From a virus (taxonomy: Duplodnaviria; Heunggongvirae; Uroviricota; Caudoviricetes): a stretch of DNA of 64,000 nt. Below the pieces are notes generated by a model. That model saw nothing but the letters and a program-made list of their open reading frames with translations, searched no databases and was not told the origin of the DNA. Position numbers and translations under genes: made by a program. Positions within the stretch are counted from its first letter, which is position 1, and each line of letters opens with the position of its first letter. Below, piece by piece: positions 1 to 40,863 of this stretch. The stretch lies in the IMG/VR virus record IMGVR_UViG_3300029305_004468. The stretch is one strand, 5' to 3'.

Positions 1-27
1 GAAACTCATCACATAGAACCATATCAA

Positions 28-225
28 ATGAAAAAAGGCAAGTCTGGTAAATATGACACTAAAGAAATACAGGAACTAGATAAAGATAAAAAATACATAG
101 TAGCTTTCGTAGACAAGACAAGAAACGACGAAGACAAGCAACAAATATTATACGAATTCAATGGAAGATTCAACACGTGGAAGGAGATTGGCTTCTGCCA
201 TGTAATCAACGACCACAACTGGTAA
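28..225 (+). CDS. small hypothetical phage protein (65 aa)
   Basis: Intact ORF with an ATG start at the head of the + strand early cluster. No recognisable motif. Confidence 0.35.
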   Translation: MKKGKSGKYDTKEIQELDKDKKYIVAFVDKTRNDEDKQQILYEFNGRFNTWKEIGFCHVINDHNW

Positions 226-245
226 ACGGGAGGTGAAGATATTGG

Positions 246-1274
246 GTGATTAGCGTTGAAAAATTAAATGAGCAATTGTTAGGTGATTTCGACGCTATTG
301 TGACAATCCTTGAAGCTTTAGGGATTACAAATATTAATCCCAACTTCACCAGAAGAGAGATACGCTGCAGTAGAGAAGACGGAAGAAATCCGTCCTCGAT
401 AAGGATAAATGTCGACACATTATACTACAGGTGTTTCTCAACCGGAGAAAAAGGCTCTATTTACACGCTAGTGATGAATAGAAAAGGAATTAACTTTCCC
501 GACGCTCTCCGGTGGGTAGCAAGAACTTTGGGGCTGAGTACGACAGAGCTTCGAAATGCCCCAAAGAGATTACCTTTCAATGGATTTTTTAAGAAAATCG
601 AAAGACAAGCTATAGAACCAGAGCTTGATATGAAATCTTATGACAAAGAGATATTAAGGCCATTTAATCAGACTTATAGTCTGATGTTTAATCGAGACGG
701 TATAGGATACGACACACAAAATTATTTTGGAGTTGGATACGACTACAGTAGCGACAGAATAACAATTCCGCAATGGGATTTGAATGGCAATCTGGTGGGA
801 ATTATGGGCAGACTGAATGAGTCTGATGCGCCTAAAGAAAAGAGGTGGTTGCCTATAATACCTTGCCAGAGAAGTTATACTCTGTACGGTTATCATTTCA
901 ATTATCCATACATCCAGAAAAGGGGCTTTTGCTTTATAGGGGAAAGCGAGAAGTTCGTGATGCAGTTGGCATCAATGGGCTACAGAAACTCCTTGGCGGT
1001 GTGTGGATGTGATATTTCGAATATTCAAGCTCGACACATTAAAGCACTCATGTGTAAGACGCTTATAGTGTGCTTTGATGAGGGATTAGAAGAAGAAAGA
1101 ATAATAGAACAAGCAAAGAAGCTCAAAATCAACAATCCACTTTTTCAGAATAAGGTCGGATACATATATGACGCTAATGGCGATTATTTGCCGCTAGGAA
1201 GTAAGAATTCGCCGTCTGATTTAGGGATAGAAGTTTTTGAGAATCTTGTAAAGAAGAAGATTAAATGGGTATAA
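246..1274 (+). CDS. DNA primase, DnaG-like (zinc-binding N-terminus plus TOPRIM core)
   Basis: GTG start after the SD GGGAGGTG. Cys-rich N-terminal region (RCSREDG...YYRCFSTGEKGSIY). TOPRIM-like acidic motifs (FIGESEKFVMQLASMGY, LIVCFDEGLEEE). Sits in the replication module next to the polymerase. Confidence 0.55.
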   Translation: MISVEKLNEQLLGDFDAIVTILEALGITNINPNFTRREIRCSREDGRNPSSIRINVDTLYYRCFSTGEKGSIYTLVMNRKGINFPDALRWVARTLGLSTTELRNAPKRLPFNGFFKKIERQAIEPELDMKSYDKEILRPFNQTYSLMFNRDGIGYDTQNYFGVGYDYSSDRITIPQWDLNGNLVGIMGRLNESDAPKEKRWLPIIPCQRSYTLYGYHFNYPYIQKRGFCFIGESEKFVMQLASMGYRNSLAVCGCDISNIQARHIKALMCKTLIVCFDEGLEEERIIEQAKKLKINNPLFQNKVGYIYDANGDYLPLGSKNSPSDLGIEVFENLVKKKIKWV

Positions 1275-1286
1275 AGGGGGGTTAAT

Positions 1287-2402
1287 ATAGCAGAACGAGA
1301 AAGAGATCCAAGACTTCAAGCTCTGTTCGATGCGAAGAAAAAGGTTTACTCCTTTTCAAAATTAAGCTCGATAGGAAACTGCCCATATTCTGCATATCTG
1401 TCCTATGTCGTCAGACAGAAGAATAGGAAGCAGAGTATCTGGGGAATTCTTGGTGGCAAATTTCACGACAAATTAGAAGAAATAACTAACAAGGAAGCAA
1501 CGAGAGATGAGTTAATTCCCCTCGTAGATGAAGAATTATCATATCTTGACATGTTAGGCCTTGACTTTCCAAAAGACTTTAAAGGCGGAGACTCTATAAG
1601 AAACAATTGGGTCACTAATATGCAACATTTTAGCAATACATTTGAACCGCTAGAAGGCAAGTTCGATACAGAAGAATTGCTCATTCTCAAAATCGATGAT
1701 GATCACTACCTGCAAGGATACGCAGACTTAATCAGACATAATGAAGACGGTACATTGTCTATCTTAGACTGGAAAACGTCCAGTTTATATAGCGAAGAAG
1801 ACTTCGAACACGCCGCTCACCAGCTGTTCATATATGGATTAGCTAAAGAACAGGAAGGATTTAAAGTCAGAGATATGGCATGGATATTCCTGAAATATGT
1901 CGAAGTCGAATTTATGGGTAAGAAAAGAGCTAACTCAAAAAACGATACTTTAATCACTAAAGTAATCGAAAGAAGAAAGCTCACTTCTGAGCTCCGCAAA
2001 TACGTCGAAGCTGATTTGAGAAAACTGGGATACTCAGATGTGGAAGTGTACTTACTTTTAGGCGAAATGACGAAGAACAATTCTTTAGATGTTTTACCTG
2101 ACGAAGTAAAAAGCAACTATACAGTTAAGCCGTACATAAAAACAATTCCGTTCGACGAAGAAGGTAAGAACTTAACTATGAAATTTATTGTTGATACTAT
2201 TGCCGACTTTGAAAGAAGAGAGGATTGTGAAGCCGACTGGAAACCGCGCCCGTTCACGAAAACTAACAAAGCAGGCAAGGTAGTCGAGGATACTTTTTAC
2301 TGTAATGCCTTATGCGACTTTGGCGGTACATGCAAGTTTATTAAAGAGTATAACCTATCAAAGGTGCCGGAAAACATAAAAGACTACGAGGAGTGGTTCT
2401 AA
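1287..2402 (+). CDS. Cas4-like / RecB-family PD-(D/E)XK exonuclease with a C-terminal Cys cluster; probable non-canonical AUA start
   Basis: The frame is open from 1275 directly after the primase TAA. The translation YSFSKLSSIGNCPYSAYLSYV...GILGGKFHDKLEEI matches the Cas4 N-terminal S.S...C...H pattern. The nuclease core is GYADLI...ILDWKTS and the C-terminus has CNALCDFGGTCKF. There is no ATG, GTG or TTG before 1551. ATA at 1287 lies 5 nt after the G-run AAAGGGGGG. The body 1551-2402 is certain; the start is inferred. Confidence 0.55.
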   Translation: MAERERDPRLQALFDAKKKVYSFSKLSSIGNCPYSAYLSYVVRQKNRKQSIWGILGGKFHDKLEEITNKEATRDELIPLVDEELSYLDMLGLDFPKDFKGGDSIRNNWVTNMQHFSNTFEPLEGKFDTEELLILKIDDDHYLQGYADLIRHNEDGTLSILDWKTSSLYSEEDFEHAAHQLFIYGLAKEQEGFKVRDMAWIFLKYVEVEFMGKKRANSKNDTLITKVIERRKLTSELRKYVEADLRKLGYSDVEVYLLLGEMTKNNSLDVLPDEVKSNYTVKPYIKTIPFDEEGKNLTMKFIVDTIADFERREDCEADWKPRPFTKTNKAGKVVEDTFYCNALCDFGGTCKFIKEYNLSKVPENIKDYEEWF

Positions 2403-5400
2403 TGCAGAATTATCATAAACACTGCAGCGAATCAAACATCTTCACGCCAGACTCTGCCGCTACATATGAAGATTACGCAAAGAGAGCGATGGAATTAGGA
2501 CATCGAGTTATATCGACAGTAGAGCATGGCTGGCAAGGCAGATATCATCACGCTTATGATATTGTAAAACAGTTTGCTAAACCAAAAACAGAAAAGGGCG
2601 GACAGGATTATCAGCTTAAACTGATTTTTGGAGCAGAAGCTTACTGGGTTAAAGATAATCAAAGCAAAGACCGTACAAATGGACATATAATCATGCTTGC
2701 TAAAAATGAGAACGGCAGAAGAAAGATAAATGGAATCTTATCCGATGCCAATGAATTTGGATACTATTACAAGCCAAGGGTAGACGAACAATCTATCTTG
2801 AGCTTGCCGCCAGATGATGTGTTCATAACGACAGCTTGCGTTGCGTTTTGGCAATACGAAGACGACTATATGGAAGACTTCGTAAAGCGGCTCGCAAATC
2901 ATTTCGGAGACAATTTCAAACTGGAAGTTCAATATCACAATACAGATAAGCAGAAAGAGCTTAATCAAAGAATTTTACAACTGTCTGAAAAATATGGTAT
3001 TGGACTTATAGCGGGAATGGACAGCCATTATATACATCCAGAACAAGCGCAGGAGCGTGAATTCATTCTTGAATCGAAGAAGATAAGCTACGACGATGAA
3101 GATGGGTGGTATATGGACTATCCAGATGATGAAACGGTCTACAGAAGATTTGTTGAACAGGGGATTTTAAACGATTCTCAAATAAGAGAAGCTATGGATA
3201 CTACTGACCTATTGCTCGATTTTGAGGACTTCACAGTAGACAATCCAGTCTTTTCTACAAATCCAAAGCTTCCAACTCTTTACGATGGTGAACATGTAAT
3301 AAACGGTAGAAGACTTCCTAAATTAAATCAAGAGCAGAGAAATAAAGTCTATAGTCAGTTGATAACAAAGCTCTTCAAGGAATACTTAAAGGGAGTTCCC
3401 GAGGAAAGACACGCTGAATATTTTGAAGGGGTAAATCAAGAAGTTCAGGTTATCAAAGAGACTAACATGTCGGACTATTTCTTAATCGACTATGAGATTG
3501 TTAAGAGGGCCATTGAAAAGGGCGGCGTTCTTACTAATTCGGGCAGAGGGTCTGCCGTAGGATATATGACAAATACTCTGCTTGGATTTTCTAAAGTAGA
3601 CAGATTTAGAAGTCCAATTAAACTTTACCCGGAAAGATTTATAAGTAAAAGTCGAATACTAGAGTCGAACTCGTTACCAGATATCGATTTAAACTGGGGT
3701 ACACCGGAGATAGCCGAAGAAGCTCAGGAAGAGATTCTCGGTAAAAATCACGCATATCCGATGATAGCGTTTGGCACTTATAAAAAGAAATCGGCATTCA
3801 AATTGTATGCGAGAGCCAGAGATTTGGATTTCGATATAGCAAACAATATTTCAAAGCAGATTGAGAAATATGAAGAAGCCGAAAAACACGCAGAAGATGA
3901 AGAAGAACGTAAGGCTATAAATATTTATGAATTTGTAGACGAAGAATATCACGACTACATAACTCAGAGTCAGTCATACTGGGGTATTATATCCGACAAG
4001 AAGAAAGCTCCATGTAGTTATCTGCTCTACGCAGGAGATATTCGTGAAGAAATCGGACTTATCAAATGTAAGAGTGAATCAACAAAGAAAGAATACATAA
4101 CGACAGTAATAGACGGAGCCGTAGCTGAAAACTACAAGTTCCTTAAGAATGATATTCTCAAGGTGGACACCGTCTTACTTACTGACTTGGTTTATAAGCG
4201 TATAGGTATGAAGCCTCACACGGTCAACGAACTCACAGAGGCTGTCGCATCCGACCAGAAAGTGTGGGATGTTTACGCAAGAGGATTAACTATTGGAGTT
4301 AATCAGTGCGAGAAAGATTCCACAATACAAAAGGTTAAGCATTATCAGCCACAGAACGTATCAGAGCTGTCTGCATTTATAGCCGGTATTAGACCGGGCT
4401 TTAAATCAATGTATTCTACATTTGCATCGAGACAAACATATGAATATGGCATAAAGAGTTTTGACGATTTGATTCAGACTGAGCAGTTTCCGTACTCATT
4501 CATCATGTATCAAGAACAGCTTATGACGACATTAAATTATGCCGGTTTTCCGATAGATAAGTGTTATCAGATAATCAAAGACATATCAAAGAAACACCCT
4601 GAAAAAGTTCTTCCTTTAAGAGAGGACTTTTTAAAAGGGTTCTCGTCAAAGATACTTGTTGACTGTAGCTCAGAAACTGAAGCTATGGAAATGTCTGAAA
4701 AAGTATGGAAAATTATCTATGACAGTACATCGTATTCATTCAATTCGTCTCACGCCTACTGTATGGCTCTCGACAGTCTTTATAATGCATGGCAAAAAGC
4801 AAATCATCCGTATGAATTTTACGAAGTGCTGCTGCAGGTCTTTTCTGATAAGGGGAAGAAAGACAAAGTGGCAGACCTAAAAAGAGAAATGAAAGACGGA
4901 TTTGGGATTAATGAAGGAGATTATCGCTGGGGTTTAGATAATCGTAAATTTGTCGCAGATAAAGAAAACAGCGCAATTAACCCATCATTAGTATCTATAA
5001 AAGGTTTAAGTCAAGGTTTTGCGAATGACTTATATTCGCTATCTCAGAAAAAATCTTATGACAACTTCTACGACCTGTGGAAAGATGTCAACTCTTTAAA
5101 ATCATCCAATAGTGCAAAAATAGGTGTCTTGGTATGTCTGAATTACTTTAAAGAATTTGGTTCTATTACGAAGATCACAAGATTTCTGAATATTGTAAGT
5201 GAACTGTATGAACGTACTCAGTTTAAAAAAGGCGATGAAGTTACGCTTAAATACGAGAGGTTCATTAAGCAATTCTCTGAAAGCGAGACAGAAAAGCTCT
5301 ACAGGGGCTTTGATTATGATGCCGCTTTAAAGGAAATCTGGACAAAACTGAAGGATGTAGAAACCCCATGTAAAGATATCCTCGGATATGAGCTTGAACT

Positions 5401-9007: not shown

Positions 9008-9578
9008 ATTTAAAAAATCTAAAAATGCAGATCCTGAAGTTAAGATTCAAGAAGACTTTGCAAACGAAAAAGATTATCTGCTGTATTTGATACAAGCTAC
9101 TGAAATACCAGGCAAAACTAAGATGGTAGCGCAGCATTTGTTGCTCGAGAAATACCCGGATGAATACAGAAAGATATTCAAAATGAATACAAGACCTGAA
9201 TATAGAATTGCATTTAGATATAAAGACATGACGGAATATAGCCCGGCTAAAAAGGACATTGAACCAGACACTGAGTATTTTAAAGCGACGGCATCTTACA
9301 GAGTGTACGGACAGAAGGGCAATCAGCTTATGTCAGAAGACAGCAAGGTGGTTAAGTGTAAATTCTACAATGGGCCTGCTCAAAACGAGGGTGAAATTAA
9401 TCCTCTTTATAAACTTACATATAAAGAATTAAACGAAGATCTGAAAAAACAAATTCTGCTCCAACATATCGAAGACATTGTCGCTGAAAGACTTAAGCAG
9501 GCAAGTAAAAATTGGACAGACTGGGAAGAAGTTATTGTTGCATTAGATACTGCTAAGGGAAAGGAGAACGACAATTAA
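8997..9578 (+). CDS. hypothetical protein (193 aa)
   Basis: Intact ORF. Its TAA stop overlaps the proposed ATT start of the next gene. Confidence 0.35.
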   Translation: MLNKFKKSKNADPEVKIQEDFANEKDYLLYLIQATEIPGKTKMVAQHLLLEKYPDEYRKIFKMNTRPEYRIAFRYKDMTEYSPAKKDIEPDTEYFKATASYRVYGQKGNQLMSEDSKVVKCKFYNGPAQNEGEINPLYKLTYKELNEDLKKQILLQHIEDIVAERLKQASKNWTDWEEVIVALDTAKGKENDN

Positions 9579-10200
9579 TAGAAAGACTGAAATTCTCAAG
9601 ATTAAAGGGGACTGGACAGAAGTTCTTAACGACTGTAGGCATACAGTAAGTAAAGAACCACTTAATAAAATGCCTTCAGAGAGCTTCATTAAGAGAGTTC
9701 TCATTTCAGAACATAGTCCTATAAGAAGTTTGAAGTTTAAGTGGGTTTGGCACAACATTAAAAGCTGGATAAGCGTTCACTGGACAAGACATTCCTGGGA
9801 ATGTTTCGTCGGAACTCAAAGAACAGACAGAACGGGAGTGAATAGAGATGAACTTCCTCAGAATCAGCCGGTAAATTTCATAGGAGAAATGAATGTTCAG
9901 AATGCAATTGATACACAAAGAAAAAGATTGTGTTATCAGGCTTCTGATGAGACAAGAGAATACGCCGAAGACTTGAAACTTACTTTACATGAAGACGAAC
10001 AGCTGAAATATGTAGCTGACGTAATGGTTCCAAACTGCATTTATCGTTGCGGTTGCTGTGAACACATGGGAGAGCCTTGCAATTTCTTTGAAAAACTTAA
10101 TGAAAAATTAGGTGGTGCACTTCTTACTACTGACATTCAGGCAAGATATGACACGTACAACGAATGGTTCTATAATACAAAAAACAACAAAGGAGAGTAG
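9574..10200 (+). CDS. possible ThyX-like (FAD-dependent thymidylate synthase-like) protein; probable AUU start
   Basis: The stretch RVLISEHSPIRSLKFKWVWHNIKSWISVHWTRHSW loosely resembles the ThyX GH.SPFEH...F.F....W.RHR region. The gene sits in a nucleotide-metabolism cluster. The frame is open from 9547 and the first ATG (9670) would cut off this region. ATT 9574 lies 7 nt after AAGGAG. Cys-rich C-terminus. Weak call. Confidence 0.3.
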   Translation: MNRKTEILKIKGDWTEVLNDCRHTVSKEPLNKMPSESFIKRVLISEHSPIRSLKFKWVWHNIKSWISVHWTRHSWECFVGTQRTDRTGVNRDELPQNQPVNFIGEMNVQNAIDTQRKRLCYQASDETREYAEDLKLTLHEDEQLKYVADVMVPNCIYRCGCCEHMGEPCNFFEKLNEKLGGALLTTDIQARYDTYNEWFYNTKNNKGE

Positions 10201-10202
10201 CT

Positions 10203-10751
10203 ATTAGCAAACATATAATTTTACTCATTGGAAAATCTGGCACGGGAAAAACAACCGTGTCAGAAATTATGCAAGTTAAATACGGATTTAAACCAGTACA
10301 GTCTTATACAACAAGACCTCCTAGATATCAAGGTGAGACTGGACATATTTTCGCCACAGATGTTGACTATTTTTATATGAAAGATGATGCATGTGCTTTT
10401 ACGATGTTCGATGGAAAGAAGTATTGGGTGACCAACGAACAGGTAGATAAGTGTGATACATACGTTATAGACCCTGCCGGAGTTGATTACTTTATAAAAA
10501 ACTATAAAGGAAAGAAGACTCCGATCATAGTTGAATTGACAGCCCGTGGCTGGAAAAGATTTGCACGCATGACAGAACGCGGAGATTCAATTTGGGATGC
10601 AGTGCGTAGAATTATCCACGATAGAAAAAAATTTAAGGGCTTTACCGGACAAATGGTTGTCAATACAGACGATAAAAGTCCTGAAGAGGTCGCGACTACA
10701 ATATATAACATAGTCTCAATGAAGGAAATGGTTGAGGGTGGACTGAAATGA
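10203..10751 (+). CDS. guanylate kinase-like nucleoside/deoxynucleoside monophosphate kinase; probable AUU start
   Basis: P-loop LLIGKSGTGKTT and the guanylate-kinase signature SYTTRPPRYQGE lie upstream of the first GTG (10257). No ATG, GTG or TTG precedes the P-loop. ATT 10203 lies 7 nt after GGAG. Confidence 0.5.
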   Translation: MSKHIILLIGKSGTGKTTVSEIMQVKYGFKPVQSYTTRPPRYQGETGHIFATDVDYFYMKDDACAFTMFDGKKYWVTNEQVDKCDTYVIDPAGVDYFIKNYKGKKTPIIVELTARGWKRFARMTERGDSIWDAVRRIIHDRKKFKGFTGQMVVNTDDKSPEEVATTIYNIVSMKEMVEGGLK

Positions 10752-11323: not shown

Positions 11324-14300
11324 TTGAGAATAGAAGAGTGGTTAGGATTAGACAATCAATTAGGAATGGACATATGGCGCAGTAAGTATCAGTACAACAA
11401 TGAATCATTTGAAGATTGGCTGCAGAGAGTTAGTGGTGGAAATCCTGAACTCAAGGAATTGATAAGAGATAAAAAATTCCTTTTCGGCGGAAGAGCTCTC
11501 GCCAATAGAGGTACTGATAAGAAAGGGAGCATGTTTAATTGTTATTCATCAGGATATGTTCCTGACGATATAGACGGCATAATGCAGATCAACACAAACC
11601 TTGCTTTAACATATAAAGCGCAGGGCGGACAAGGTGTGTCTCTATCGAAAATTAGACCTAAAGATACTCCAATCGGGAATGAATTTAAATCAGACGGAAT
11701 TGTACCTTTTATGGAGATTTTCAATACGACAACCTCTAGTATCTCTCAAGGCGGAGCTAGAAAGGGTGCACTGATGATGTCTCTTGATATCATGCATAAA
11801 GAGGCTGAAACTTTTATCACTATCAAATCCAATGAGGATAAGATTACGAAAGCTAATCTTTCACTTGAAATTGATGATAAATTCATGCGCGCTGTAAACA
11901 CATACTATGAAACAGGCGAAATAGTAAAAATACACGAACGTAGAGAATATAACGGTCATGTCGTTGAATATGACGTAACTCCTATCAATCTGTATAAGTT
12001 AATGATGGAAACTGTTTATGATTGGGGAGAGCCTGGCTGTATTTATAGTGACAGGTTCAGAAACTATAACTTAATGCAGTATGATGAGAATTACGAAATT
12101 CAAACTTGTAATCCTTGTGGTGAACAACCATTGCCAAAAGACTTCAGCTGTGTAAGTGGAGATACTTTAATATCATTGCCTGATAGAGTCGCTAAGATTA
12201 AAGAGCTCTGCAAAGAAGGTTATAATTCTTACGTTATGAGTAATGATAATGTCTTTAGAAAATGTAGTGGAGTTGTAGAACGCGGAGTAAAACCGATATA
12301 TAGACTAACATTAAAGAATGGGCTATCTATTGACGCAACGTTAGATCATAAATTTGAAACGCTTGACGGTGTTAAAGAGCTTGGAAATATCCAGCCCAAC
12401 AAAGATAAAATAAAAGTAAACACAGGATATTATCTTTCTCGATATGACGATAACGACGAACTATATGAAATGTTTGGATGGATGCATGGTGATGGATGGA
12501 TAACTGAAAAGGCAATTGGAATTAGTTTCAACAAGAAGGATGGAGACTTTGACGTTAAAGATAGACTCTTGCCTAAATTTAAAGAATATTTTCAATGCGA
12601 AAGTGTTAAGCCCTTAAAAGATGATGATGTAAGCTATCAGTTACAGACTACTGGCAACACTAAAGTGGTGGGAAAATGTAAAAATCTAGGGTTTGTCTTT
12701 GGATTGGCAAATGAAAGAAGGCTCCCTGAAAGTTTCTACAGTTGGAGTTTAAACCAACAATATTCATTCTTAAGAGGACTTTTTGCGGCCGATGGAAATA
12801 TACAAGGAAAATGTAATGGGCAGGTATGGTTATACTCTGCAAGCGAAATGTTAATTGCAGATGTTCAGAAGTTCTTAGCGTCTGTGGGAATTCATTCATC
12901 TAGATATTGCAGCAATTTTAAATCAAACCCTGCAAGAAATCCACAATATAAACTCAGCATATCTAAGAACTCAGCAAAAATATTTTCCGAAGTGATTGGA
13001 TTTAACGGGCATAAAAAAGAAGATAGACTCAATCTTACTAATTATAAAGACGAAAATGATTATATCGTTGAATCTATTGAATACATAGGCGAAGAGATGA
13101 CATATGACATTTTAGAGGTTGACAAGACAAACATGTTCTTTGCTAATGGAATTTCTGTCCACAACTGTAATTTGGGATCTTTGAACCTTTATGAGTTTAT
13201 TGTTAATCCTTTTACAGAAGATGCAAGATTCGACTGGCACGAATTCGCTCATGCTGTACATATCGCAGTAGAAGGATTGGATGATATTATAGACGAAAAT
13301 CTACATAGACATGCACTAAAAGCGCAGGCAGAAAACTCAAAAAACTATAGAAATATAGGATTAGGAATTATGGGTTACGCGAACGCATTGTTTGCTTTAG
13401 GCATTACATACGGAGACAAAGAAGCAAAGCTCTTTACTAAAAACCTATTCAAATTTTTCTTTAGCAATGCAGTTGCCGCAAGTGCAAACATAGCTTCTCA
13501 AAAGGGAGCTTTTCCTATGTGTAATAAAGAAGCAATCCTTAAAAGCGACATATTAAAGCAAATTGATGATATTGAAATTATTAAAATGGTAGAGCAGTAC
13601 GGGCTTAGAAATTGTTCATTGTTATCAATAGCTCCAACTGGGTCAATTGCAACAATGCTGGGAATTTCTGGCGGATGTGAGCCTGAATTTGCATTGAGTT
13701 ATACAAGAAGAACTGACAATCTAAATGAAAGTTACAAAGTTTATTGTAAATCAGTTCGAGACTATGCAAGAGCAAAAGGTATAAACGTAGAAGAAATAAA
13801 AGTACTCCCAGAATATTTTATTACATCGGCAGAAATTCCTTGGAAAAATAGAATTGAAGTACAAGGCATCATGCAGGACTATGTAGATACTGCTATCAGT
13901 TCCACAGTAAATCTTCCTAAAGACATCCCAGCCGAAGATATAGAAGAGCTTTATTTATGTGCTTGGAAGCACGGGCTTAAAGGCGTAACAATCTTTAGAG
14001 ACGGATGTAAGAAGCTCGGAATTCTTATTAGCGATTCTGTACAGGAAGAAATGCAACAGTCAGATTCAATGAAAGAAGAAGTTTTACCGAGAGGTGTCGT
14101 GATAGAAGCTCACGATGATGCGGTAGGGAAGAAAAGAAAACTGATAACCGGATGTGGAAGCTTACATTGTACTGCTTTCTTTGACCCGGTAACCGGCGAT
14201 TTGAGAGAAACATATCTCAGCAAAGGCTCTGCAGGTGGCTGCAATAACTTTATGATAGGACTGTCTCGTATGATTTCACTTTCAGCAAGAGGCGGAGTTC

Positions 14301-14620
14301 ACATAGACGACATTATAGATCAGCTCAATTCTTGCGGCTCATGTCCAAGTTATGCTATTAGATCCGCAACACAGAAAGATACAAGTAAAGGTTCATGCTG
14401 TCCTACAGCTGTTGGCAATGCACTCAGAGAAATGTGGAATGAAATGCAGTATGAAATTAACGACTGCGAAGAGTTTGAAGATTTGTCTGATGTAATACTG
14501 CAAGCTGAAGATGAAGTAGATGAAACGATTGATTATGAATGCCCAAAATGCGGAGATAAACTATATTTCGAAGGCGGCTGCAATATCTGCAAATCATGCG
14601 GTTGGAGTAAGTGCGATTAG
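11324..14620 (+). CDS. ribonucleotide reductase large subunit (class II/NrdJ-like, NPCGE active site) interrupted by an intein; C-terminal zinc ribbon
   Basis: TTG start 7 nt after AAGGAG. Active-site loop TCNPCGEQPLP. C-terminal CPKCG...CNICKSCG. 1098 aa including the intein. Confidence 0.6.
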   Translation: MRIEEWLGLDNQLGMDIWRSKYQYNNESFEDWLQRVSGGNPELKELIRDKKFLFGGRALANRGTDKKGSMFNCYSSGYVPDDIDGIMQINTNLALTYKAQGGQGVSLSKIRPKDTPIGNEFKSDGIVPFMEIFNTTTSSISQGGARKGALMMSLDIMHKEAETFITIKSNEDKITKANLSLEIDDKFMRAVNTYYETGEIVKIHERREYNGHVVEYDVTPINLYKLMMETVYDWGEPGCIYSDRFRNYNLMQYDENYEIQTCNPCGEQPLPKDFSCVSGDTLISLPDRVAKIKELCKEGYNSYVMSNDNVFRKCSGVVERGVKPIYRLTLKNGLSIDATLDHKFETLDGVKELGNIQPNKDKIKVNTGYYLSRYDDNDELYEMFGWMHGDGWITEKAIGISFNKKDGDFDVKDRLLPKFKEYFQCESVKPLKDDDVSYQLQTTGNTKVVGKCKNLGFVFGLANERRLPESFYSWSLNQQYSFLRGLFAADGNIQGKCNGQVWLYSASEMLIADVQKFLASVGIHSSRYCSNFKSNPARNPQYKLSISKNSAKIFSEVIGFNGHKKEDRLNLTNYKDENDYIVESIEYIGEEMTYDILEVDKTNMFFANGISVHNCNLGSLNLYEFIVNPFTEDARFDWHEFAHAVHIAVEGLDDIIDENLHRHALKAQAENSKNYRNIGLGIMGYANALFALGITYGDKEAKLFTKNLFKFFFSNAVAASANIASQKGAFPMCNKEAILKSDILKQIDDIEIIKMVEQYGLRNCSLLSIAPTGSIATMLGISGGCEPEFALSYTRRTDNLNESYKVYCKSVRDYARAKGINVEEIKVLPEYFITSAEIPWKNRIEVQGIMQDYVDTAISSTVNLPKDIPAEDIEELYLCAWKHGLKGVTIFRDGCKKLGILISDSVQEEMQQSDSMKEEVLPRGVVIEAHDDAVGKKRKLITGCGSLHCTAFFDPVTGDLRETYLSKGSAGGCNNFMIGLSRMISLSARGGVHIDDIIDQLNSCGSCPSYAIRSATQKDTSKGSCCPTAVGNALREMWNEMQYEINDCEEFEDLSDVILQAEDEVDETIDYECPKCGDKLYFEGGCNICKSCGWSKCD
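12149..13165 (+). mobile_element. intein (339 aa) with a LAGLIDADG homing endonuclease domain inside the RNR gene
   Basis: Begins CVSGDTLI immediately after the NPCGEQPLPKDFS exon sequence. Ends VHN followed by the exteinic C(NLGS). Two LAGLIDADG-type motifs (MFGWMHGDGWI, LRGLFAADGNI). Confidence 0.6.
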
Positions 14621-15812: not shown

Positions 15813-16197
15813 ATACATAATTAAGAGTGACGCCAGACAGTATATCTTACTTAAAGTAGTCGAATCAGAAGAGGGTGGCGAAGAAACAGAGTCCGCTATC
15901 GCATACTGCAACTCTATGGCACACGTGTTTAAATGCTTAACAGAACGTGAGGGAAGACTTAATAAGTGCACAACTTTAGAAGGCTATGTCAAACACATAG
16001 AGAAAATAAATAAAAAACTTGAGGCTATTTTGCAAGCTATAGCAGAAGCGTCTGGAGCAAAAGAGAATTTATTCCGCATTGTAGCCGCGGCTGCAGATGA
16101 AGTTCCAGAGAAAATAGACTCTCTAACAGGAGAACTTCCTGCGAAAAAGAAAACTACTGCAAAGAAGACTACTAAAAAAGCGGAGGCAAAAAAATAG
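15787..16197 (+). CDS. hypothetical protein with a Lys-rich C-terminal tail (AKKKTTAKKTTKKAEAKK)
   Basis: Intact ORF. Ends in an A7 run just before TAG. Confidence 0.35.
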   Translation: MNIRIWDDKYIIKSDARQYILLKVVESEEGGEETESAIAYCNSMAHVFKCLTEREGRLNKCTTLEGYVKHIEKINKKLEAILQAIAEASGAKENLFRIVAAAADEVPEKIDSLTGELPAKKKTTAKKTTKKAEAKK

Positions 16198-16382
16198 AAA
16201 GCGCACTGTTAACACTCAAAGAGTTTTGTGCTTATCTAAAAATAGGGCAAACAAAGGCGAGGGAGTTACTTCTCTCGCCTTCCTGTACATATTGCGTTAG
16301 AATAGGCAACAGACTCTATGCTCATAAAAAAGAATTGGATAAATGGCTGCTAGTTCAAGCCAGGGGTAGAAAAATTAAATGA
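16194..16382 (+). CDS. excisionase-like helix-turn-helix DNA-binding protein (Xis); probable AUA start
   Basis: The translation LTLKEFCAYLKIGQTKARELLL...RLYAHKKELDKWL resembles a Xis/MerR-type HTH. It lies immediately upstream of int. No canonical start exists in the open frame (16176-16382). ATA 16194 lies 7 nt after GGAGG. Confidence 0.4.
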   Translation: MESALLTLKEFCAYLKIGQTKARELLLSPSCTYCVRIGNRLYAHKKELDKWLLVQARGRKIK

Positions 16383-16397
16383 AAATATGCTATAATA

Positions 16398-16411
16398 ATG
16401 ATACCTATCAT
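16398..16411. promoter_or_regulatory. near-palindromic operator-like site ATGATACCTATCAT abutting a TATAAT -10 box upstream of int
   Basis: TATAAT at 16391-16396 is followed directly by the ATGATA-CC-TATCAT palindrome. Its exact reverse complement occurs at 18027-18040. Confidence 0.4.
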
Positions 16412-16437
16412 AGCCTTTTTATTAAGGAGGTTATTTC

Positions 16438-17721
16438 ATGGGAAAAGATTTAAAAGGAAGGGAATTAGGTAAAGGTATAGTCCAACGTAAAGACGGTATG
16501 TATCATGCTAGATTTGTTAACCGGTTTGGAGTCAGACAAAGTATATACGATAAAGATTTGCCGGCATTGAAGAAGGAATTCATTAAGGCTCAATACGAAG
16601 ATCAAATGCAGGCAAATAGCTTTGATAAAAATTTGATTCTAGATGATTGGTATGCAAAATGGATGGAGATTTACAAAGAGGGAGATATCAGACCAAGCAC
16701 TAAATTAATATACAACCAGATATATCGTGACCACATATCTCCAACTCTCGGACAGACTACTCTCGTTACAATTACAAATCTACATATCAAAAACCTCATG
16801 AATCGTTTAAAAAACGAAAAAGGATTAGGCTATGAAGTGAGAAACAAAGCAAGAATCATACTGCAGGACGTTTTTAACAAAGCAATCATGAATGAACTAA
16901 TGTTAAGAAATCCTGCATTAGGTATTCGAGTATTGAGAGATAAGAAAGAATCTGTACGAGTTTTAAGCGTCGAAGATCAATATGATTTTTTCGATTGTTG
17001 TTCGGGGACTTTTTACGATAATGCTTTCATAGTGCAAGCAAATTTAGGTTTGAGGCCAGGGGAACTATATGGATTAAAAATAGAAGATATTGATCTTGAA
17101 AACAATACAGTCCATATACAACGTACTTTATCTTACCAAAAATTTGAAGGAGACGAAGGTAAAACTTTTCATTTTGGACCACCAAAAACAGAGAGCAGCG
17201 ACAGAGTAATACCTATGACGCAAGCGTGCAAGCTCGCTCTACAAAAGCAGATTCTGCAAAAGAGAATAGTCGCACAAAAGAGTCCAAAGCAAGTAGATGA
17301 ACAATTCAAGGACTTGTTATTTACTACAAAATTCAATACACCATTAAATACTGCTATCTATAGCGCAGCTATAGAAAAAGTCGTAAAAGAGATCAATCTC
17401 ACAAGAATACCAATTGAATATTTGGAAGTTTTTTCGCCGCACTGTTTTAGACATACATTCGCAACAAGATGCTTTGAAGCCGGAATTGACTTTAAAGTAA
17501 TACAAAAATATCTAGGACACGCTTCTATCAATATGACAATGGATCTATACGTACACGTCACTGATACTTTGGCTGGGGATGAACTCCCGAAGCTTGACAA
17601 GTTGCTACAAGATATAGATAATTTAGAAGAGCCTATAATTGCGGCAAGAACAGAAAGAATAGATAAAGAGGAATCAAAAGTGATAGACTTTGACGAATCT
17701 CGTGCGATGTTAGTGGTGTAA
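16438..17721 (+). CDS. int: tyrosine integrase (phage integrase family)
   Basis: 427 aa. N-terminal arm-binding-type region. C-terminal catalytic region HCFRHTFATRCFEAGIDFKVIQKYLGHASINMTMDLYVHV (R...H.R ... H...Y). Followed by a repeat-rich attP-like region. Confidence 0.75.
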   Translation: MGKDLKGRELGKGIVQRKDGMYHARFVNRFGVRQSIYDKDLPALKKEFIKAQYEDQMQANSFDKNLILDDWYAKWMEIYKEGDIRPSTKLIYNQIYRDHISPTLGQTTLVTITNLHIKNLMNRLKNEKGLGYEVRNKARIILQDVFNKAIMNELMLRNPALGIRVLRDKKESVRVLSVEDQYDFFDCCSGTFYDNAFIVQANLGLRPGELYGLKIEDIDLENNTVHIQRTLSYQKFEGDEGKTFHFGPPKTESSDRVIPMTQACKLALQKQILQKRIVAQKSPKQVDEQFKDLLFTTKFNTPLNTAIYSAAIEKVVKEINLTRIPIEYLEVFSPHCFRHTFATRCFEAGIDFKVIQKYLGHASINMTMDLYVHVTDTLAGDELPKLDKLLQDIDNLEEPIIAARTERIDKEESKVIDFDESRAMLVV

Positions 17722-38500: not shown

Positions 38501-40863
38501 TAGAATTGATACGCAGTGCCTTCGCTATCAGTCCAAACACCTTCCATTTCGCGTATAGCTGTTTCAACTTCTCCGGTGTTTGAAAGATCTATTTCTGTCC
38601 AATGTCGGGCATTATCGATCATAGAAGCGAGTAACGGTTCGCTTATATTGAGAGCATCCGCAACTTCTTTAAATTCAGAACTATCGATATCATAACTGCC
38701 GTCAGATTTAATAAGCTCTTTAAAACCACCTTTTCCATCCTCTATAAGGTTGTTTAATTCCTCTCTATTTTCAAGCAGCATAGAAAAGAACTCTGCGGTT
38801 CCTGACTTTGCATCAGTCATTACTCCAGATAAGCTTTTCATCTTGGCGTTAACTTCATCAAAGTCATAGTTCATTTCTTTGAGAGTGTCTGCACCGAGCA
38901 TTTGCTGCGCAGCCTGCCAAAATGCTTTAGTTCCGTTGCCCGCATTGTCGAAGCCGTCCATGACTTCATCATAAACTTCTCCAAATGCATTAATGCCAGT
39001 ATTGTAATCTCCGCCTTCCATTGCGGCATCAAATTCTTCTTTAGCATTGCGCGCCTCTGCCATGAGATCTTTGAGAGGATTAAAAGCCTTTTCTAAGCTT
39101 AATGCGTTTTCTTGAGCATAGTCTTTAATATTGTTAGCCTGACTACGAAGAGCTTCTGCTATTATAGGATCTACTTCTTGCCATTTGTCGGCTAAAGTAT
39201 TTAATGCGTGGACTTCAGATGTGACAGCGTCATTATATTCTTCAACTGCAGTCTTATCGCCATTCGTTTCATCAAATGCCTCTTTTGCCTGTTCTGCCTC
39301 TTCAATAACTTCTCGATAGCTAACAAGTTCTTCACTTCCTTCAAGCTTTATTTCGGAAGATACTCCCATAACTGTTTCGCCCTGATAAACCTTCTTTAAG
39401 GTGTCAGCAACAACAACTGCTTCTGCAGCCATTTCAGAAGAAGTTAAGCTTGCGTCCATTGCGATTTCTTTCAGACTTGCCTGATATCCTGAACGCAACG
39501 CTTCAGGAACACTATTTAATATAGAATCCGCGCTATCTTCTGCGACTTCGCCTAATACGGTCATTTGAGATACATATGTCGTAATATAATCAACCATAGG
39601 CTGAGCCGCTGCTTCATATTGAGCAGACGCAGTGGTTAAAGAAATTAGAGATGTTGTTAGTTCGTTAATTTTTTCAGCGTCTTCAGCGTCTGTACGATTC
39701 CAACCATTTTGCTCAATTGCTTTGGCAACAATTTCCTCTTTTTGAGCAGCAATCTCACGAAGCTGTTCTAAAGATGCTGTTTCGAAATCGACTTCTTCGC
39801 CTATAGCTTGAGTGACTATATCACTAACTTCGCCACCAGTTCTGTGTCCACTTCTGCCGTAATAGTGCCCAGTTTCTTGAGCGTCTCCAACTGCATCTCG
39901 AACTTTGCCGCCTTCTTCTTTCATGCTTTCTCTAACATCTTTAAGATTTTCCTGAATACCTTTCTGAATGTCAGAACCCATAGCCAGATAGGAAAGGGTA
40001 GCATTTTTAGCATACTCCTCCTGAAGTTTTATACCTTGTTCGATAGCGCTATTTCTGTCAACAATAGCGTTGCCTTCGATGGTGTAACCCTTAACTAAGT
40101 CAGGATTTATGGCAACTAATTCAGATACTATTTCATTATAACGAGCGTATTGATCTGCACTGAGACCAATATTTTCACCGCTAGCATTTACGCCTTTTGA
40201 GAGCGTTTCAAATTCGTCTGCTACTGAATTTATGTTTTTAATATTTCCTTCAGAAGTCTCGAGCGCGTCATTATAGTTGTTGACTGCTTCTTCCATTTTG
40301 GAAATTTTAGTCTCCGCTGTTAAAGCGTGTTTGTCGTCTAGATAGTTCCAAAGCTTTGAAATACCATTTATTACTAAGCCAACAAGGGCAGCCATACCTA
40401 AATTCATGCCCATTGCCTTCATAGAATTAGACAGACCTTTAAATGACTCTGCAGCTTTCTGATTTGAAATTATCTGTTTCCGTTGCTCTTTAGCATAGTC
40501 AGAGATTTGTTTGCGGTTCTCTCCAAGATTTTTAACCGATTTTTTTTGTGCTTCCTCTAAATTAGATTCTGCAACAATGTTTGCACTCATAGTTTCTGCT
40601 AACCGTTTAGCGTTATCTGTACATCCATTCATTGCAGCCGCGCGGCCTGCTTCGGCTTCTGCATGTGTAATCGTTCCAAGAGTTAACTCTTTATTTATAT
40701 TTGCAACTTCCTTAAGTCCCGCTACGTCACTTTTAAGGGCAGTTCTATCTTGATATGCATTTGTACGTGCTTGAGTTTTTCTTGCATTCCATGCAGATTG
40801 AACTACAGTACTTATATCTCCAGTTTTTGCATCTGTTATTTTTTCTGCTGTTTTAAATATCAA
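35512..40863 (-). CDS. very large tape-measure-like protein (TMP2, 1783 aa) with C-terminal tandem repeats of about 39 aa
   Basis: TTG start. Long coiled-coil composition with a hydrophobic segment MGMNLGMAALVGLVINGISKLW near residue 150. Repeats SLDHKLEMGTI(T/S)EAQYY.KLK.LG..YYK.RK.Y.DEWK.HLE occur three to four times (nt about 36000-36560). Confidence 0.5.
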   Translation of the reverse strand: MIFKTAEKITDAKTGDISTVVQSAWNARKTQARTNAYQDRTALKSDVAGLKEVANINKELTLGTITHAEAEAGRAAAMNGCTDNAKRLAETMSANIVAESNLEEAQKKSVKNLGENRKQISDYAKEQRKQIISNQKAAESFKGLSNSMKAMGMNLGMAALVGLVINGISKLWNYLDDKHALTAETKISKMEEAVNNYNDALETSEGNIKNINSVADEFETLSKGVNASGENIGLSADQYARYNEIVSELVAINPDLVKGYTIEGNAIVDRNSAIEQGIKLQEEYAKNATLSYLAMGSDIQKGIQENLKDVRESMKEEGGKVRDAVGDAQETGHYYGRSGHRTGGEVSDIVTQAIGEEVDFETASLEQLREIAAQKEEIVAKAIEQNGWNRTDAEDAEKINELTTSLISLTTASAQYEAAAQPMVDYITTYVSQMTVLGEVAEDSADSILNSVPEALRSGYQASLKEIAMDASLTSSEMAAEAVVVADTLKKVYQGETVMGVSSEIKLEGSEELVSYREVIEEAEQAKEAFDETNGDKTAVEEYNDAVTSEVHALNTLADKWQEVDPIIAEALRSQANNIKDYAQENALSLEKAFNPLKDLMAEARNAKEEFDAAMEGGDYNTGINAFGEVYDEVMDGFDNAGNGTKAFWQAAQQMLGADTLKEMNYDFDEVNAKMKSLSGVMTDAKSGTAEFFSMLLENREELNNLIEDGKGGFKELIKSDGSYDIDSSEFKEVADALNISEPLLASMIDNARHWTEIDLSNTGEVETAIREMEGVWTDSEGTAYQFYDTISSEAAAAGLNVDEVHKKIANLDNVKVIDLTLFFDEETIGEVTKSLISMDSALGSEDGVGGFSVNADAVIERLLYMGRTAEETAEILEELDEKGWIKEGSHTNESDDWSSYTSTKETDVDVSNPTNRVVDGIMQVVSAIDQLTIAMGGIPTDINFETNAAEIQGDIVSLQAADTYTKEDVSAVKLNVENTLSTYEQLRKNARSSGNEELAKKCTENIKLLEEYSKTLDEMLTEASSKEEAILAEAESDFKNGNISESAYKKIQDGTLETVFGNIDMDDRPIIEWSEKTKEKFKDELISWGEDPELGSVSTVIGGSIGAMFGEEEVEIAYTPIIETDGKAELLGKETVGNYLQEVADAAMADGKWDLSEILEIDAKGLKVPKLNSKGEQVGTTYVQGIIAGVGEEQEYLASEIGYLMHYAGQYGASVLAGYSPLSFQIAPQITPQVDNTGETQTSASLNSLHSQALLLNGDYRIGVGVTGYFNAMAQLEALYQKKKQLAQGGTLGIGGSIAKGTNYRPHTHFPSMAKGGKLGPNGNGGLTLTGELGTELVWIPSESRSFLVGQFGPEMVNLPAEAVVYPADETRRIIGDTIPRHRFNFGTMAYGNTTFGSAGTGKPISTSSSSSTKTKEKTKGSVKKYESGLDKLQHQLEMGYITESRYYTKLKDLYDKHKKALKKNVEEQRAALEELRSAWIDAYESKKDSLDHKLEMGTITEAQYYEKLKALGKKYYKDRKGYTDEWKQHLEDQREAWIDSYDAAKDSLDHKLEMGTISEAQYYKKLKDLGDEYYKGRKKYADEWKEHLEERKDAANDAYNAEAEDLEDSLERGTLSVESYYKKITELQKKYLSGKTMAEDRADAKSDMFDNLRDGLDELWDKAQQKIDDNDLFGKWVKGGKTSLDILQDAYDKIEELSFKYFKTEKERLEYLKEKQREIAQARKEFYEDQRDNLQTILDLTEDMVRQEAQDVLDGLEKQKDAYSEIIEKKKKSLAIANVVD

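Follow-up and report, generated by a model that had tools for sequence, protein, structure and literature searches.

The 64,000-nucleotide (nt) stretch of DNA analysed here, hereafter the window, belongs to a phage of the Caudoviricetes (IMG/VR record IMGVR_UViG_3300029305_004468) and carries on its plus strand a primase-like gene followed by a gene for a Cas4/RecB-like nuclease, which lacks a canonical start codon ahead of its conserved domain (Table 1). After the primase stop the frame is open from 1275 to the TAA at 2400-2402, and the codons that follow the stop read AGG GGG GTT AAT ATA GCA GAA CGA. A first-pass annotation had proposed that the nuclease is initiated at the ATA, and all the coordinates on which it relied were found to hold (primase TAA at 1272-1274, nuclease in the same frame, first ATG at 1551, ATA at 1287, a run of six G (G6) at 1276-1281 and a spacer of 5 nt). 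No in-frame ATG, GTG or TTG is present between TAA 1272 and ATG 1551; the in-frame TAA lies 4 codons upstream of ATA 1287 and the first canonical codon (1551) 88 codons downstream of it, inside the domain. From the in-frame stop to the beginning of the conserved domain, ATA 1287-1289 is the sole near-cognate codon. It is preceded by a Shine-Dalgarno (SD) element, AAAGGGGGG, with a duplex energy of -11.3 kcal/mol, which ends 5 nt before the ATA (spacer TTAAT). CTG 1323 was considered as an alternative start and rejected, being without SD and inside the first conserved helix. The product of 283 amino acids (aa) called from ATG 1551 (P0001) is encoded in five independent metagenome assemblies, each from a different sample (four from the Joint Genome Institute, one from the European Nucleotide Archive); over 1.8-5.4 kb their contigs match the window at 100% identity, G6 and the ATA included. 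An out-of-frame mini open reading frame (ORF) of six codons at 1265-1285 ends 1 nt ahead of ATA 1287; it is not conserved in relatives and could affect the delivery of ribosomes to the ATA.

Table 1. Features of the window discussed in the text, with start sites found in related loci and in phage SPbeta (positions are those of the window unless a locus is named).
Feature	Position	Strand	Remarks
Primase-like gene, upstream of the nuclease	246..1274	+	Start GTG 246, stop TAA 1272-1274; from the ORF list; Pfam Zn_ribbon_DnaG, 29 bits
Mini-ORF ATG GGT ATA AAG GGG GGT TAA (MGIKGG, then stop), out of frame	1265..1285	+	Overlaps the primase end and the nuclease SD
SD element TAAAGGGGGG of the nuclease, including G6 1276-1281	1272..1281	+	Duplex with ACCUCCUUU, -11.3 kcal/mol
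ATA, proposed nuclease initiation codon	1287..1289	+	Aligns with ATG/TTG/ATA/ATC at homologous junctions
Full Cas4/RecB-like PD-(D/E)XK nuclease coding sequence, putative start ATA	1287..2402	+	371 codons + TAA; Pfam, homologues, model, Foldseek
TGC, N-terminal Cys (IGNCPY)	1380..1382	+	Kept in all full-length homologues; 171 nt upstream of ATG 1551
First canonical ATG, gene-caller choice (283-aa P0001)	1551..1553	+	No SD (+0.4 kcal/mol); within helix 83-94 of the model
SD GGAAAGGAGA of the ThyX-like gene	9558..9567	+	-9.0 kcal/mol, 6 nt before ATT 9574
ThyX-like gene, putative start ATT 9574	9574..10200	+	ATT overlaps upstream TAA 9576-9578 (ATTAA)
SD ACAAAGGAGA of the P-loop kinase-like gene	10187..10196	+	-8.9 kcal/mol, 6 nt before ATT 10203
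P-loop (deoxynucleoside monophosphate (dNMP) kinase-like) gene, putative start ATT 10203	10203..10751	+	Walker A GKSGTGKT upstream of first canonical GTG 10257
SD AAGCGGAGGC of the excisionase-like gene	16178..16187	+	-9.5 kcal/mol, 6 nt before ATA 16194
Excisionase-like helix-turn-helix gene, putative start ATA 16194	16194..16382	+	62 codons; ATA overlaps upstream TAG 16195-16197 (ATAG)
Primase/helicase of relatives, ATA starts	L016 8941, L035 8971, L037 8601, L160 700, L178 8962		
Primase/helicase of relatives, ATC starts	L025 6562, L042 6443, L045 8975, L146 8937		
Primase/helicase of relatives, further starts	L025 5054, L027 6505, L149 7077, L156 5488 (ATA); L040 957 (ATT)		
SPbeta scan sites	L191 45295		-	
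SPbeta scan sites	L191 26974	-	
SPbeta scan sites	L192 39353	+	

The conserved Cas4-like N-terminus that the first-pass annotation had placed upstream of ATG 1551 was borne out by the Pfam match, the homologues, the substitution pattern and an ordered structural model. With residues numbered from the translation beginning at 1275, in which the Met of ATG 1551 is residue 93, the Pfam domain PDDEXK_1 spans residues 26-249 (E 3.7e-15, 57 bits); the product of ATG 1551 retains only profile positions 120-223, and about 88 N-terminal residues of this Cas4/RecB-like, putative Fe-S nuclease are encoded upstream of that ATG. A protein search recovered the gene itself as the 283-aa call, together with some 120 homologues 360-383 aa long, which span 96-100% of the long form and whose alignments begin at residue 3-5. 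Over codons 2-88, comparison with the relative L009 gave 0.15 nonsynonymous substitutions per site (dN) and a saturated synonymous value (dS) of 4.7, that is dN/dS 0.03; as judged from this comparison, the region 1290-1550 is under strong purifying selection. In the AlphaFold model (mean predicted local distance difference test, pLDDT, 85; predicted template modelling score, pTM, 0.81) disorder is restricted to residues 1-8, the chain is ordered from about residue 9, and seven secondary-structure elements with pLDDT 72-92 precede residue 93.

The alignment contains a conserved block, DPRLQALFDAGKNVYSFSKLSSIGNCPY, with a Cys found in every full-length sequence (C36, in IGNCPY), and C343, C347 and C353 are invariant, with a spacing of CX3CX5C and not CX2CX5C. 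The N-terminal Cys is presumably the fourth Fe-S ligand, one plus three Cys being typical of Cas4/AddB-type Fe-S nucleases. D151, D165 and K167 are conserved, with a DWK motif. Foldseek matched the model to 9iac (ACE1), 6ppr/6ppu (AdnAB), 7lw7 (Exo5) and 4ic1 (SSO0001), with E between 3e-6 and 1e-3, probability 1.0 and modest TM-scores of 0.35-0.41; profile hidden Markov model matches were 6ppu_B and 4ic1_A. The phage protein resembles the Cas4, AddB-AdnB and Exo5 nucleases in its PDDEXK_1 domain, its top Foldseek matches and its one N-terminal and three C-terminal conserved Cys, which are putative cluster ligands, and differs from them in its length of ~370 aa, its extra inserts, the level of the TM-scores and the CX3CX5C spacing. 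It further differs from Cas4 in its setting, lying in a replication operon between the primase and DNA polymerase III (Pol III) alpha genes and outside any CRISPR-Cas adaptation module; because of these neighbours we call it Cas4-like and not Cas4.

Relatives were gathered through exact-protein look-ups, IMG/VR, GTDB genomes and metagenomes, and 190 loci were fetched (L numbers); a megablast of window positions 1-3000 against INPHARED gave no match, and distant phage matches were obtained by tblastn alone. At 52 distinct junctions, the codon aligned with ATA 1287 is ATG in 32, ATA in 10, ATC in 3 and TTG in 3, the ATA count rising from 10 to 12 once L010 and L145 are realigned by one or two codons. 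The ATA and ATC relatives have an SD match at a distance of 5-9 nt before the codon, as in AAGGGAGGTG-agaag-ATA (L036), GGAGGTGA-tgaaca-ATA (L047/L173), TAAAGGGGTG-atttt-ATA (L182) and TAGGAGGA-agtaaat-ATC (L148). An in-frame stop is found 0-12 codons upstream, with no canonical codon between, in the window lineage and in L036, L182, L039, L170, L173, L145, L152, L045 and L148-150, and a canonical start is therefore impossible in the window lineage and seven others. The next canonical codon is 12-88 codons into the domain in most ATA/ATC lineages; in L173 it is a GTG just 2 codons downstream. The closest relatives (L006, L009 and L010; 60-70% identity) have been called from a TTG or GTG that has no SD, and keep the arrangement with an SD 5-6 nt before the ATA (GGGGGG-atacag-ATA, GGCGGTGA-tatac-ATA and GGGGGT-attaac-ATA, respectively). 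In the protein alignment of P0002-P0010 the Ile at the start is invariant, and the length and sequence upstream of it are variable. As the only near-cognate codon, with a strong SD and in alignment with the ATG/TTG starts of many homologues, ATA 1287 is thus a well-supported candidate for initiation. Reassignment of AUA to Met was ruled out on two grounds, namely that homologues have Ile opposite the AUA codons and that ATT and ATC serve as starts just as much.

A neighbour-joining tree places the window within a deep clade of 11 members, all of which carry ATA. L045 (ATA) and the Acutalibacteraceae prophages L148-150 (ATC) represent separate events, and parsimony requires three changes. Synonymous sites are saturated within the ATA clade and a single transition would turn ATA into ATG, so that retention of the ATA is best explained by selection. 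The prophage relatives sit in Clostridia (Flintibacter, Acutalibacteraceae and Clostridiaceae); the one in Flintibacter muris DSM 110149 has ATG at the nuclease. A 110-kb IMG/VR phage (3300031555_005503) has all four non-canonical starts in common with the window, at 52-86% protein identity.

The other three of these starts are ATT 9574, ATT 10203 and ATA 16194, which were found as the first-pass annotation had described them, each with an SD at 6 nt. The first belongs to a ThyX-like gene whose first canonical start, ATG 9670, lies 32 codons in, and the 32 N-terminal residues that it would leave out are highly conserved. The start codon is ATA in the L036/L081/L105 phage and ATG in L115/118/125, and homologues mostly begin with an ATG three codons later. 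The protein matches Pfam Thy1 with 24.6 bits, just under the gathering cutoff of 24.8, and carries a conserved Cys-rich block, PNCxYRCGCxExMGxPC, which is not known from canonical ThyX; the protein may represent a separate enzyme family that these phages commonly carry. In two related loci, L113 (position ~2501) and L114 (IMG/VR 3300045988_173471 and _168691), the ThyX-like homologue carries an ACG in place of the ATG of relatives, with TAAGGAGA 7 nt upstream and no in-frame canonical start, and initiation at ACG is possible there. The second, ATT 10203, sits 2 nt past TAG 10198-10200 and belongs to the P-loop kinase-like gene. Five lineages have ATT or ATA at this start (ATT in L035/36, L006-8 and L082; ATA in L009). 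The start of L047 is a TTG that lies one codon before this position, and ATG, TTG or GTG starts occupy the matching N-terminal place in further relatives. The third is preceded by GCGGAGGC, spaced 6 nt from ATA 16194, and opens an excisionase-like ORF in which Pfam HTH_17 and Tn916-Xis extend over residues 5-52 and the first canonical codon is residue 48. The start is also ATA in L142/143, behind AAAAGGAG-taaatt, and is ATG at the same codon in L144. A Tn916-type integrase gene follows at 16438-17721. This excisionase and tyrosine integrase pair (16194-17721, plus strand) stands at the end of a module for replication and nucleotide metabolism that resembles that of SPbeta; the phage measures ~120 kb, and the pair implies a temperate lifestyle. 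Each site has relatives with ATA or ATT and others with ATG, TTG or GTG at the same place, in agreement with the systematic use of AUA and AUU starts that the first-pass annotation had suggested; the use extends beyond this phage, being common to a whole group of Clostridia phages.

A strong SD was defined by a duplex of -8.5 kcal/mol or better with the anti-SD sequence ACCUCCUUU. Scanning both strands of the window returned 74 strong SD-like sites, or about 1 per 1.7 kb of strand, 29 of them before canonical starts. Exactly 4 of the 74 precede only ATA, ATT or ATC (collectively ATH, or AUH in RNA) with an ORF of 50 codons or more, namely 1287, 9574, 10203 and 16194. At this density, an SD 5-6 nt before an ATH codon within the first 4-9 codons of all four start-less ORFs is not expected by chance. 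As a codon control, the 61 sense codons were treated alike in the window and the 190 loci, requiring a strong SD at a spacing of 5-8 nt, an ORF of at least 80 codons, an in-frame stop no more than 12 codons upstream, and no canonical codon either between or within 12 codons downstream. This control returned ATA 14 times, ATC 11 times, ATT 7 times and every other codon at most 4 times; ATH thus made up 32 of 63 hits compared to an Ile codon frequency of 7.4% (binomial p 5e-20, or 5e-5 if, conservatively, only 12 cases are taken as independent).

The ATH hits of the control include primases (ATA/ATC, nine loci) and DnaB helicases (ATA/ATT, five loci). In these relatives, the primase (340-343 codons) and the DnaB-type helicase (485-489 codons) have ATA, ATC or ATT as start, with SDs of -11 to -12.8 kcal/mol. 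The gene for an ERCC4-domain nuclease starts with ATG 5936 in the window and has ATC at the aligned codon in L009 (14885), with an SD 5-6 nt upstream in each; L009 holds at least six ATH-start candidates within 21 kb. Over the phage group, strong ribosome-binding sites lead to ATH in 32 cases and to a canonical start in 719 (~4% ATH). Within the window, ATH genes account for 4 of 22 plus-strand early genes and 0 of 38 others, mostly structural (Fisher p ~0.015, hand calculation).

Several points weigh against initiation at ATH codons as read here. The anti-SD sequence ACCUCCUUU is a generic one, and the Clostridia host is deduced from prophage relatives only. The codon-control counts include homologous genes of related phages, which are not phylogenetically independent. 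The in-frame TTG or GTG located 3-7 codons upstream in the three closest relatives means that the ATA is not the sole formal option there. Lastly, the five 100%-identical assemblies confirm the sequence yet carry no evolutionary information.

The arrangement of the locus itself suggests other readings, among them that the nuclease is made as part of a larger polypeptide. Readthrough of the primase TAA to give a primase-nuclease fusion would fit the shared frame of the two ORFs in the window, where they are set apart by a single TAA and four sense codons. This shared frame is seen in this phage only: in L006, L009, L035, L038, L039 and L047 either the frames of primase and nuclease differ, or the genes share 10-20 nt, or two in-frame stops stand between them. 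TAA is also the least leaky stop. We find readthrough scarcely credible for the window; the differing frames in relatives exclude a fusion made by readthrough or by frameshift, and the frame shared in the window is therefore incidental. This also disposes of the single polypeptide that the first-pass annotation had named as a possible refutation. An apparent primase-nuclease fusion in L049/L051 was discarded, as the tblastn alignment ran across a TGA and the real order is the TGA stop directly followed by a TTG start. Translation from ATG 1265 (MGIKGG...) with a +1 ribosomal shift or transcriptional slippage in G6, giving MGIKGVNIAER..., is very improbable. It draws on the fact that G5 instead of G6 would put ATG 1265 in frame, that the window has one extra base here compared to L006, and that the product would line up with the N-termini called in L006 and L010; this colinearity arises because the primase end and the SD region are homologous at the DNA level, and the called TTG/GTG starts of the closest relatives lack an SD, as does ATG 1265. 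Furthermore, G6 is agreed upon by five assemblies and is short for slippage, the 0-frame A-site codon GGT is no known pause, and L036, L038/L170, L045, L047/L173, L148-150 and L182 have neither a +1-compatible upstream ATG nor a homopolymer run, yet retain SD-N5-9-ATA. No slippery site or structure shared among relatives was found at the primase-nuclease junction, and the window yielded no tRNA gene (for instance for an altered initiator), no Rfam element and no recoding signal. It is highly unlikely that the gene is decaying or N-terminally truncated and expressed, if at all, as the 283-aa product of the ATG 1551 picked by gene callers. That ATG has no SD, a product starting there would lack seven ordered secondary-structure elements together with the conserved N-terminal Cys and would keep only half of the Pfam domain, dN/dS is 0.03 over the upstream 88 codons, and the start-less but intact arrangement is kept in many lineages. 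The probability that a true ATG is masked by an error in sequencing or assembly, by modified DNA or by edited RNA (A-to-I, for example, with AUI read as AUG) is negligible. Nothing specific speaks for it apart from ATA being one base from ATG, whereas five independent assemblies are identical, at least 11 divergent relatives have ATA and others ATC, and the TACG-type TadA motif is not present at ATA 1287; nor can editing explain the other sites, because ATT and ATC cannot be converted to AUG in this way. Homologues with ATG, which the first-pass annotation would have taken as the sign of a sequencing error, do exist but in a different clade; as the clade of the window is uniformly ATA and five assemblies agree, the ATA is not such an error.

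A further reading concerns how ribosomes reach the ATA and would refine initiation at ATA 1287, with which it is compatible. AUA 1287 may be used mainly by ribosomes that terminate at the primase TAA (1272-1274) or at the TAA of the mini-ORF (1283-1285) and then reinitiate, in which case the weak start would tie nuclease output to primase translation. The four sites of the window are 0-12 nt from an upstream stop or overlap it (ATTAA, ATAG), and in relatives the ATA overlaps or closely trails the primase stop. This proximity is not particular to ATH starts, since over all loci an upstream gene ends within -8 to +20 nt of 44% of them and of 43% of canonical starts, and several ATH starts are 28-45 nt off or have no upstream gene within 60 nt. 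The strength of the SDs (median across loci -11.5 kcal/mol for ATH sites compared to -10.0 kcal/mol for canonical ones) suggests that SD-driven selection suffices. We hold reinitiation as the main route to be possible, though rather unlikely.

On this comparative evidence, ATA 1287 is very probably the start of the nuclease gene. In the proposed mechanism, AAAGGGGGG would pair with the 3' end of 16S rRNA and bring the AUA located 5 nt downstream into the ribosomal P site, where the initiator formylmethionyl-tRNA (fMet-tRNA) would decode it with a third-position mismatch, so that the protein would begin Met-Ala-Glu-Arg and not with Ile. Because initiation factor 3 (IF3) discriminates against AUA, AUU and AUC starts, a reduced and tunable output is to be expected, which from Bacillota reporters would amount to about one tenth to one third of that of AUG. 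We infer that initiation takes place at ATA 1287 in vivo, with fMet as first residue and at lowered efficiency; that output is lower than from AUG would follow from the reporters of Staphylococcus aureus (PMC13009471). The same device would operate at ATT 9574, ATT 10203 and ATA 16194, and the weak starts would hold the nuclease, two nucleotide-metabolism enzymes and the excisionase low relative to neighbours in the same early operon. From the distribution among relatives we propose that ATH starts are an inherited and selected feature of this Clostridia phage group, and not an accident of one genome. A broader view, which we put forward tentatively and consider unlikely, is that ATA, ATT and ATC starts form an early-module translational regulon (replication, nucleotide metabolism and excision) set by the start-codon stringency of the host (IF3-to-ribosome ratio, growth state), or that Clostridia hosts discriminate unusually weakly against AUH.

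NCBI translation table 11 lists ATA, ATT and ATC as possible starts. In Escherichia coli, AUA and AUU reportedly give ~0.1-1% of the AUG level (Hecht et al. 2017), and no established natural AUA start is known in that species. In S. aureus, retapamulin ribosome profiling identified AUA starts in infC, ccpN (conserved in Bacillus subtilis) and citZ and an AUU start in cvfC1; the SDs of these four genes are extended, and in reporters the output was ~10-30% of that from AUG (PMC13009471). The phage starts resemble this set in having an AUH codon 5-8 nt behind a strong or extended SD, conservation of the codon among relatives, missed or mis-started annotation and a presumed attenuation. The S. aureus set is chromosomal, comprises four genes per whole genome and had its initiation mapped experimentally, whereas the phage set, known from sequence comparison, comprises four in ~60 genes, is clustered in the early module and is kept across a deep clade. 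In E. coli, infC and pcnB have AUU starts linked to IF3-dependent autoregulation or limitation, as summarised in PMC13009471 from its refs 73-75. The likeness lies in a near-cognate AUU that limits expression and is sensitive to IF3; unlike those of E. coli, the phage genes show no evident logic of feedback through IF3.

Among phages, a close parallel is Bacillus phage SPbeta (NC_001884), whose RefSeq record gives an ATT start to youA and a CTG start to yomF. The same scan recovered both, youA having the strong SD TTAAGGAGGC 7 nt before the ATT, and also flagged, 5 codons ahead of the annotated yoqL start, an ATA that is not annotated. SPbeta is likewise a large temperate Bacillota phage, and its yorH-yorI-yorJ-yorK-yorL genes are syntenic with the YorH, DnaB helicase, primase, nuclease and Pol III alpha genes of the group. 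It differs in that two AUH candidates (youA and near yoqL) and the CTG of yomF occur among ~185 genes, in different genes of the structural region, and its yorK nuclease is RecJ-like and not PD-(D/E)XK. A literature search for phage-specific ATA/ATT starts returned nothing directly relevant. The type of feature is thus already known and even annotated in a related phage type: the mechanism has been documented in Bacillota (PMC13009471) and annotated in SPbeta, and the phage starts are unusual mainly in their density, 4 of ~60 genes, and in how deeply they are conserved. What is new is the members concerned (Cas4-like nuclease, ThyX-like enzyme, kinase and excisionase), their density, the employment of ATA, ATC and ATT alike and the conservation deep into the clade.

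The main practical consequence is the systematic mis-annotation of ATH-start genes. Callers of the Prodigal type allow only ATG, GTG and TTG, and therefore databases store the nuclease as a 283-aa fragment without a quarter of the fold and kinase homologues, as in L006 and L009, truncated past the P-loop, which is the behaviour that the first-pass annotation had anticipated. The excisionase has no canonical-start ORF of at least 60 codons, so that such callers are expected to miss or severely truncate it. As ~4% of the strong ribosome-binding sites lead to ATH, the mis-annotation is systematic in the phage group. The retention of ATA through saturated synonymous divergence makes an unusually clear case that a weak start codon has been selected for, and a low or tunable dosage is plausible for the genes concerned, namely the nuclease, the excisionase and the enzymes of the dNMP pool, and in relatives the primase and the helicase. 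The system would suit as a natural test bed for start-codon stringency in Clostridia. Should the regulon or the weak discrimination by hosts prove true, AUH initiation would be widespread and systematically unannotated in phages of gut Clostridia, and perhaps in their hosts.

Three other genes of the window, at 40863 (minus strand), 62389 (minus strand) and 6418 (plus strand), encode 1783, 480 and 215 aa, respectively, and no SD was detected before the first canonical start of any of them; GAGGAGC occurs 11 nt ahead of an ATA at 62347. The gene for the large subunit of ribonucleotide reductase (11324-14620, plus strand) contains an intein that bears a homing-endonuclease domain of the LAGLIDADG type (Pfam Intein_splicing and LAGLIDADG_3, residues ~284-614), and its product carries a TSCPD domain at the C-terminus.

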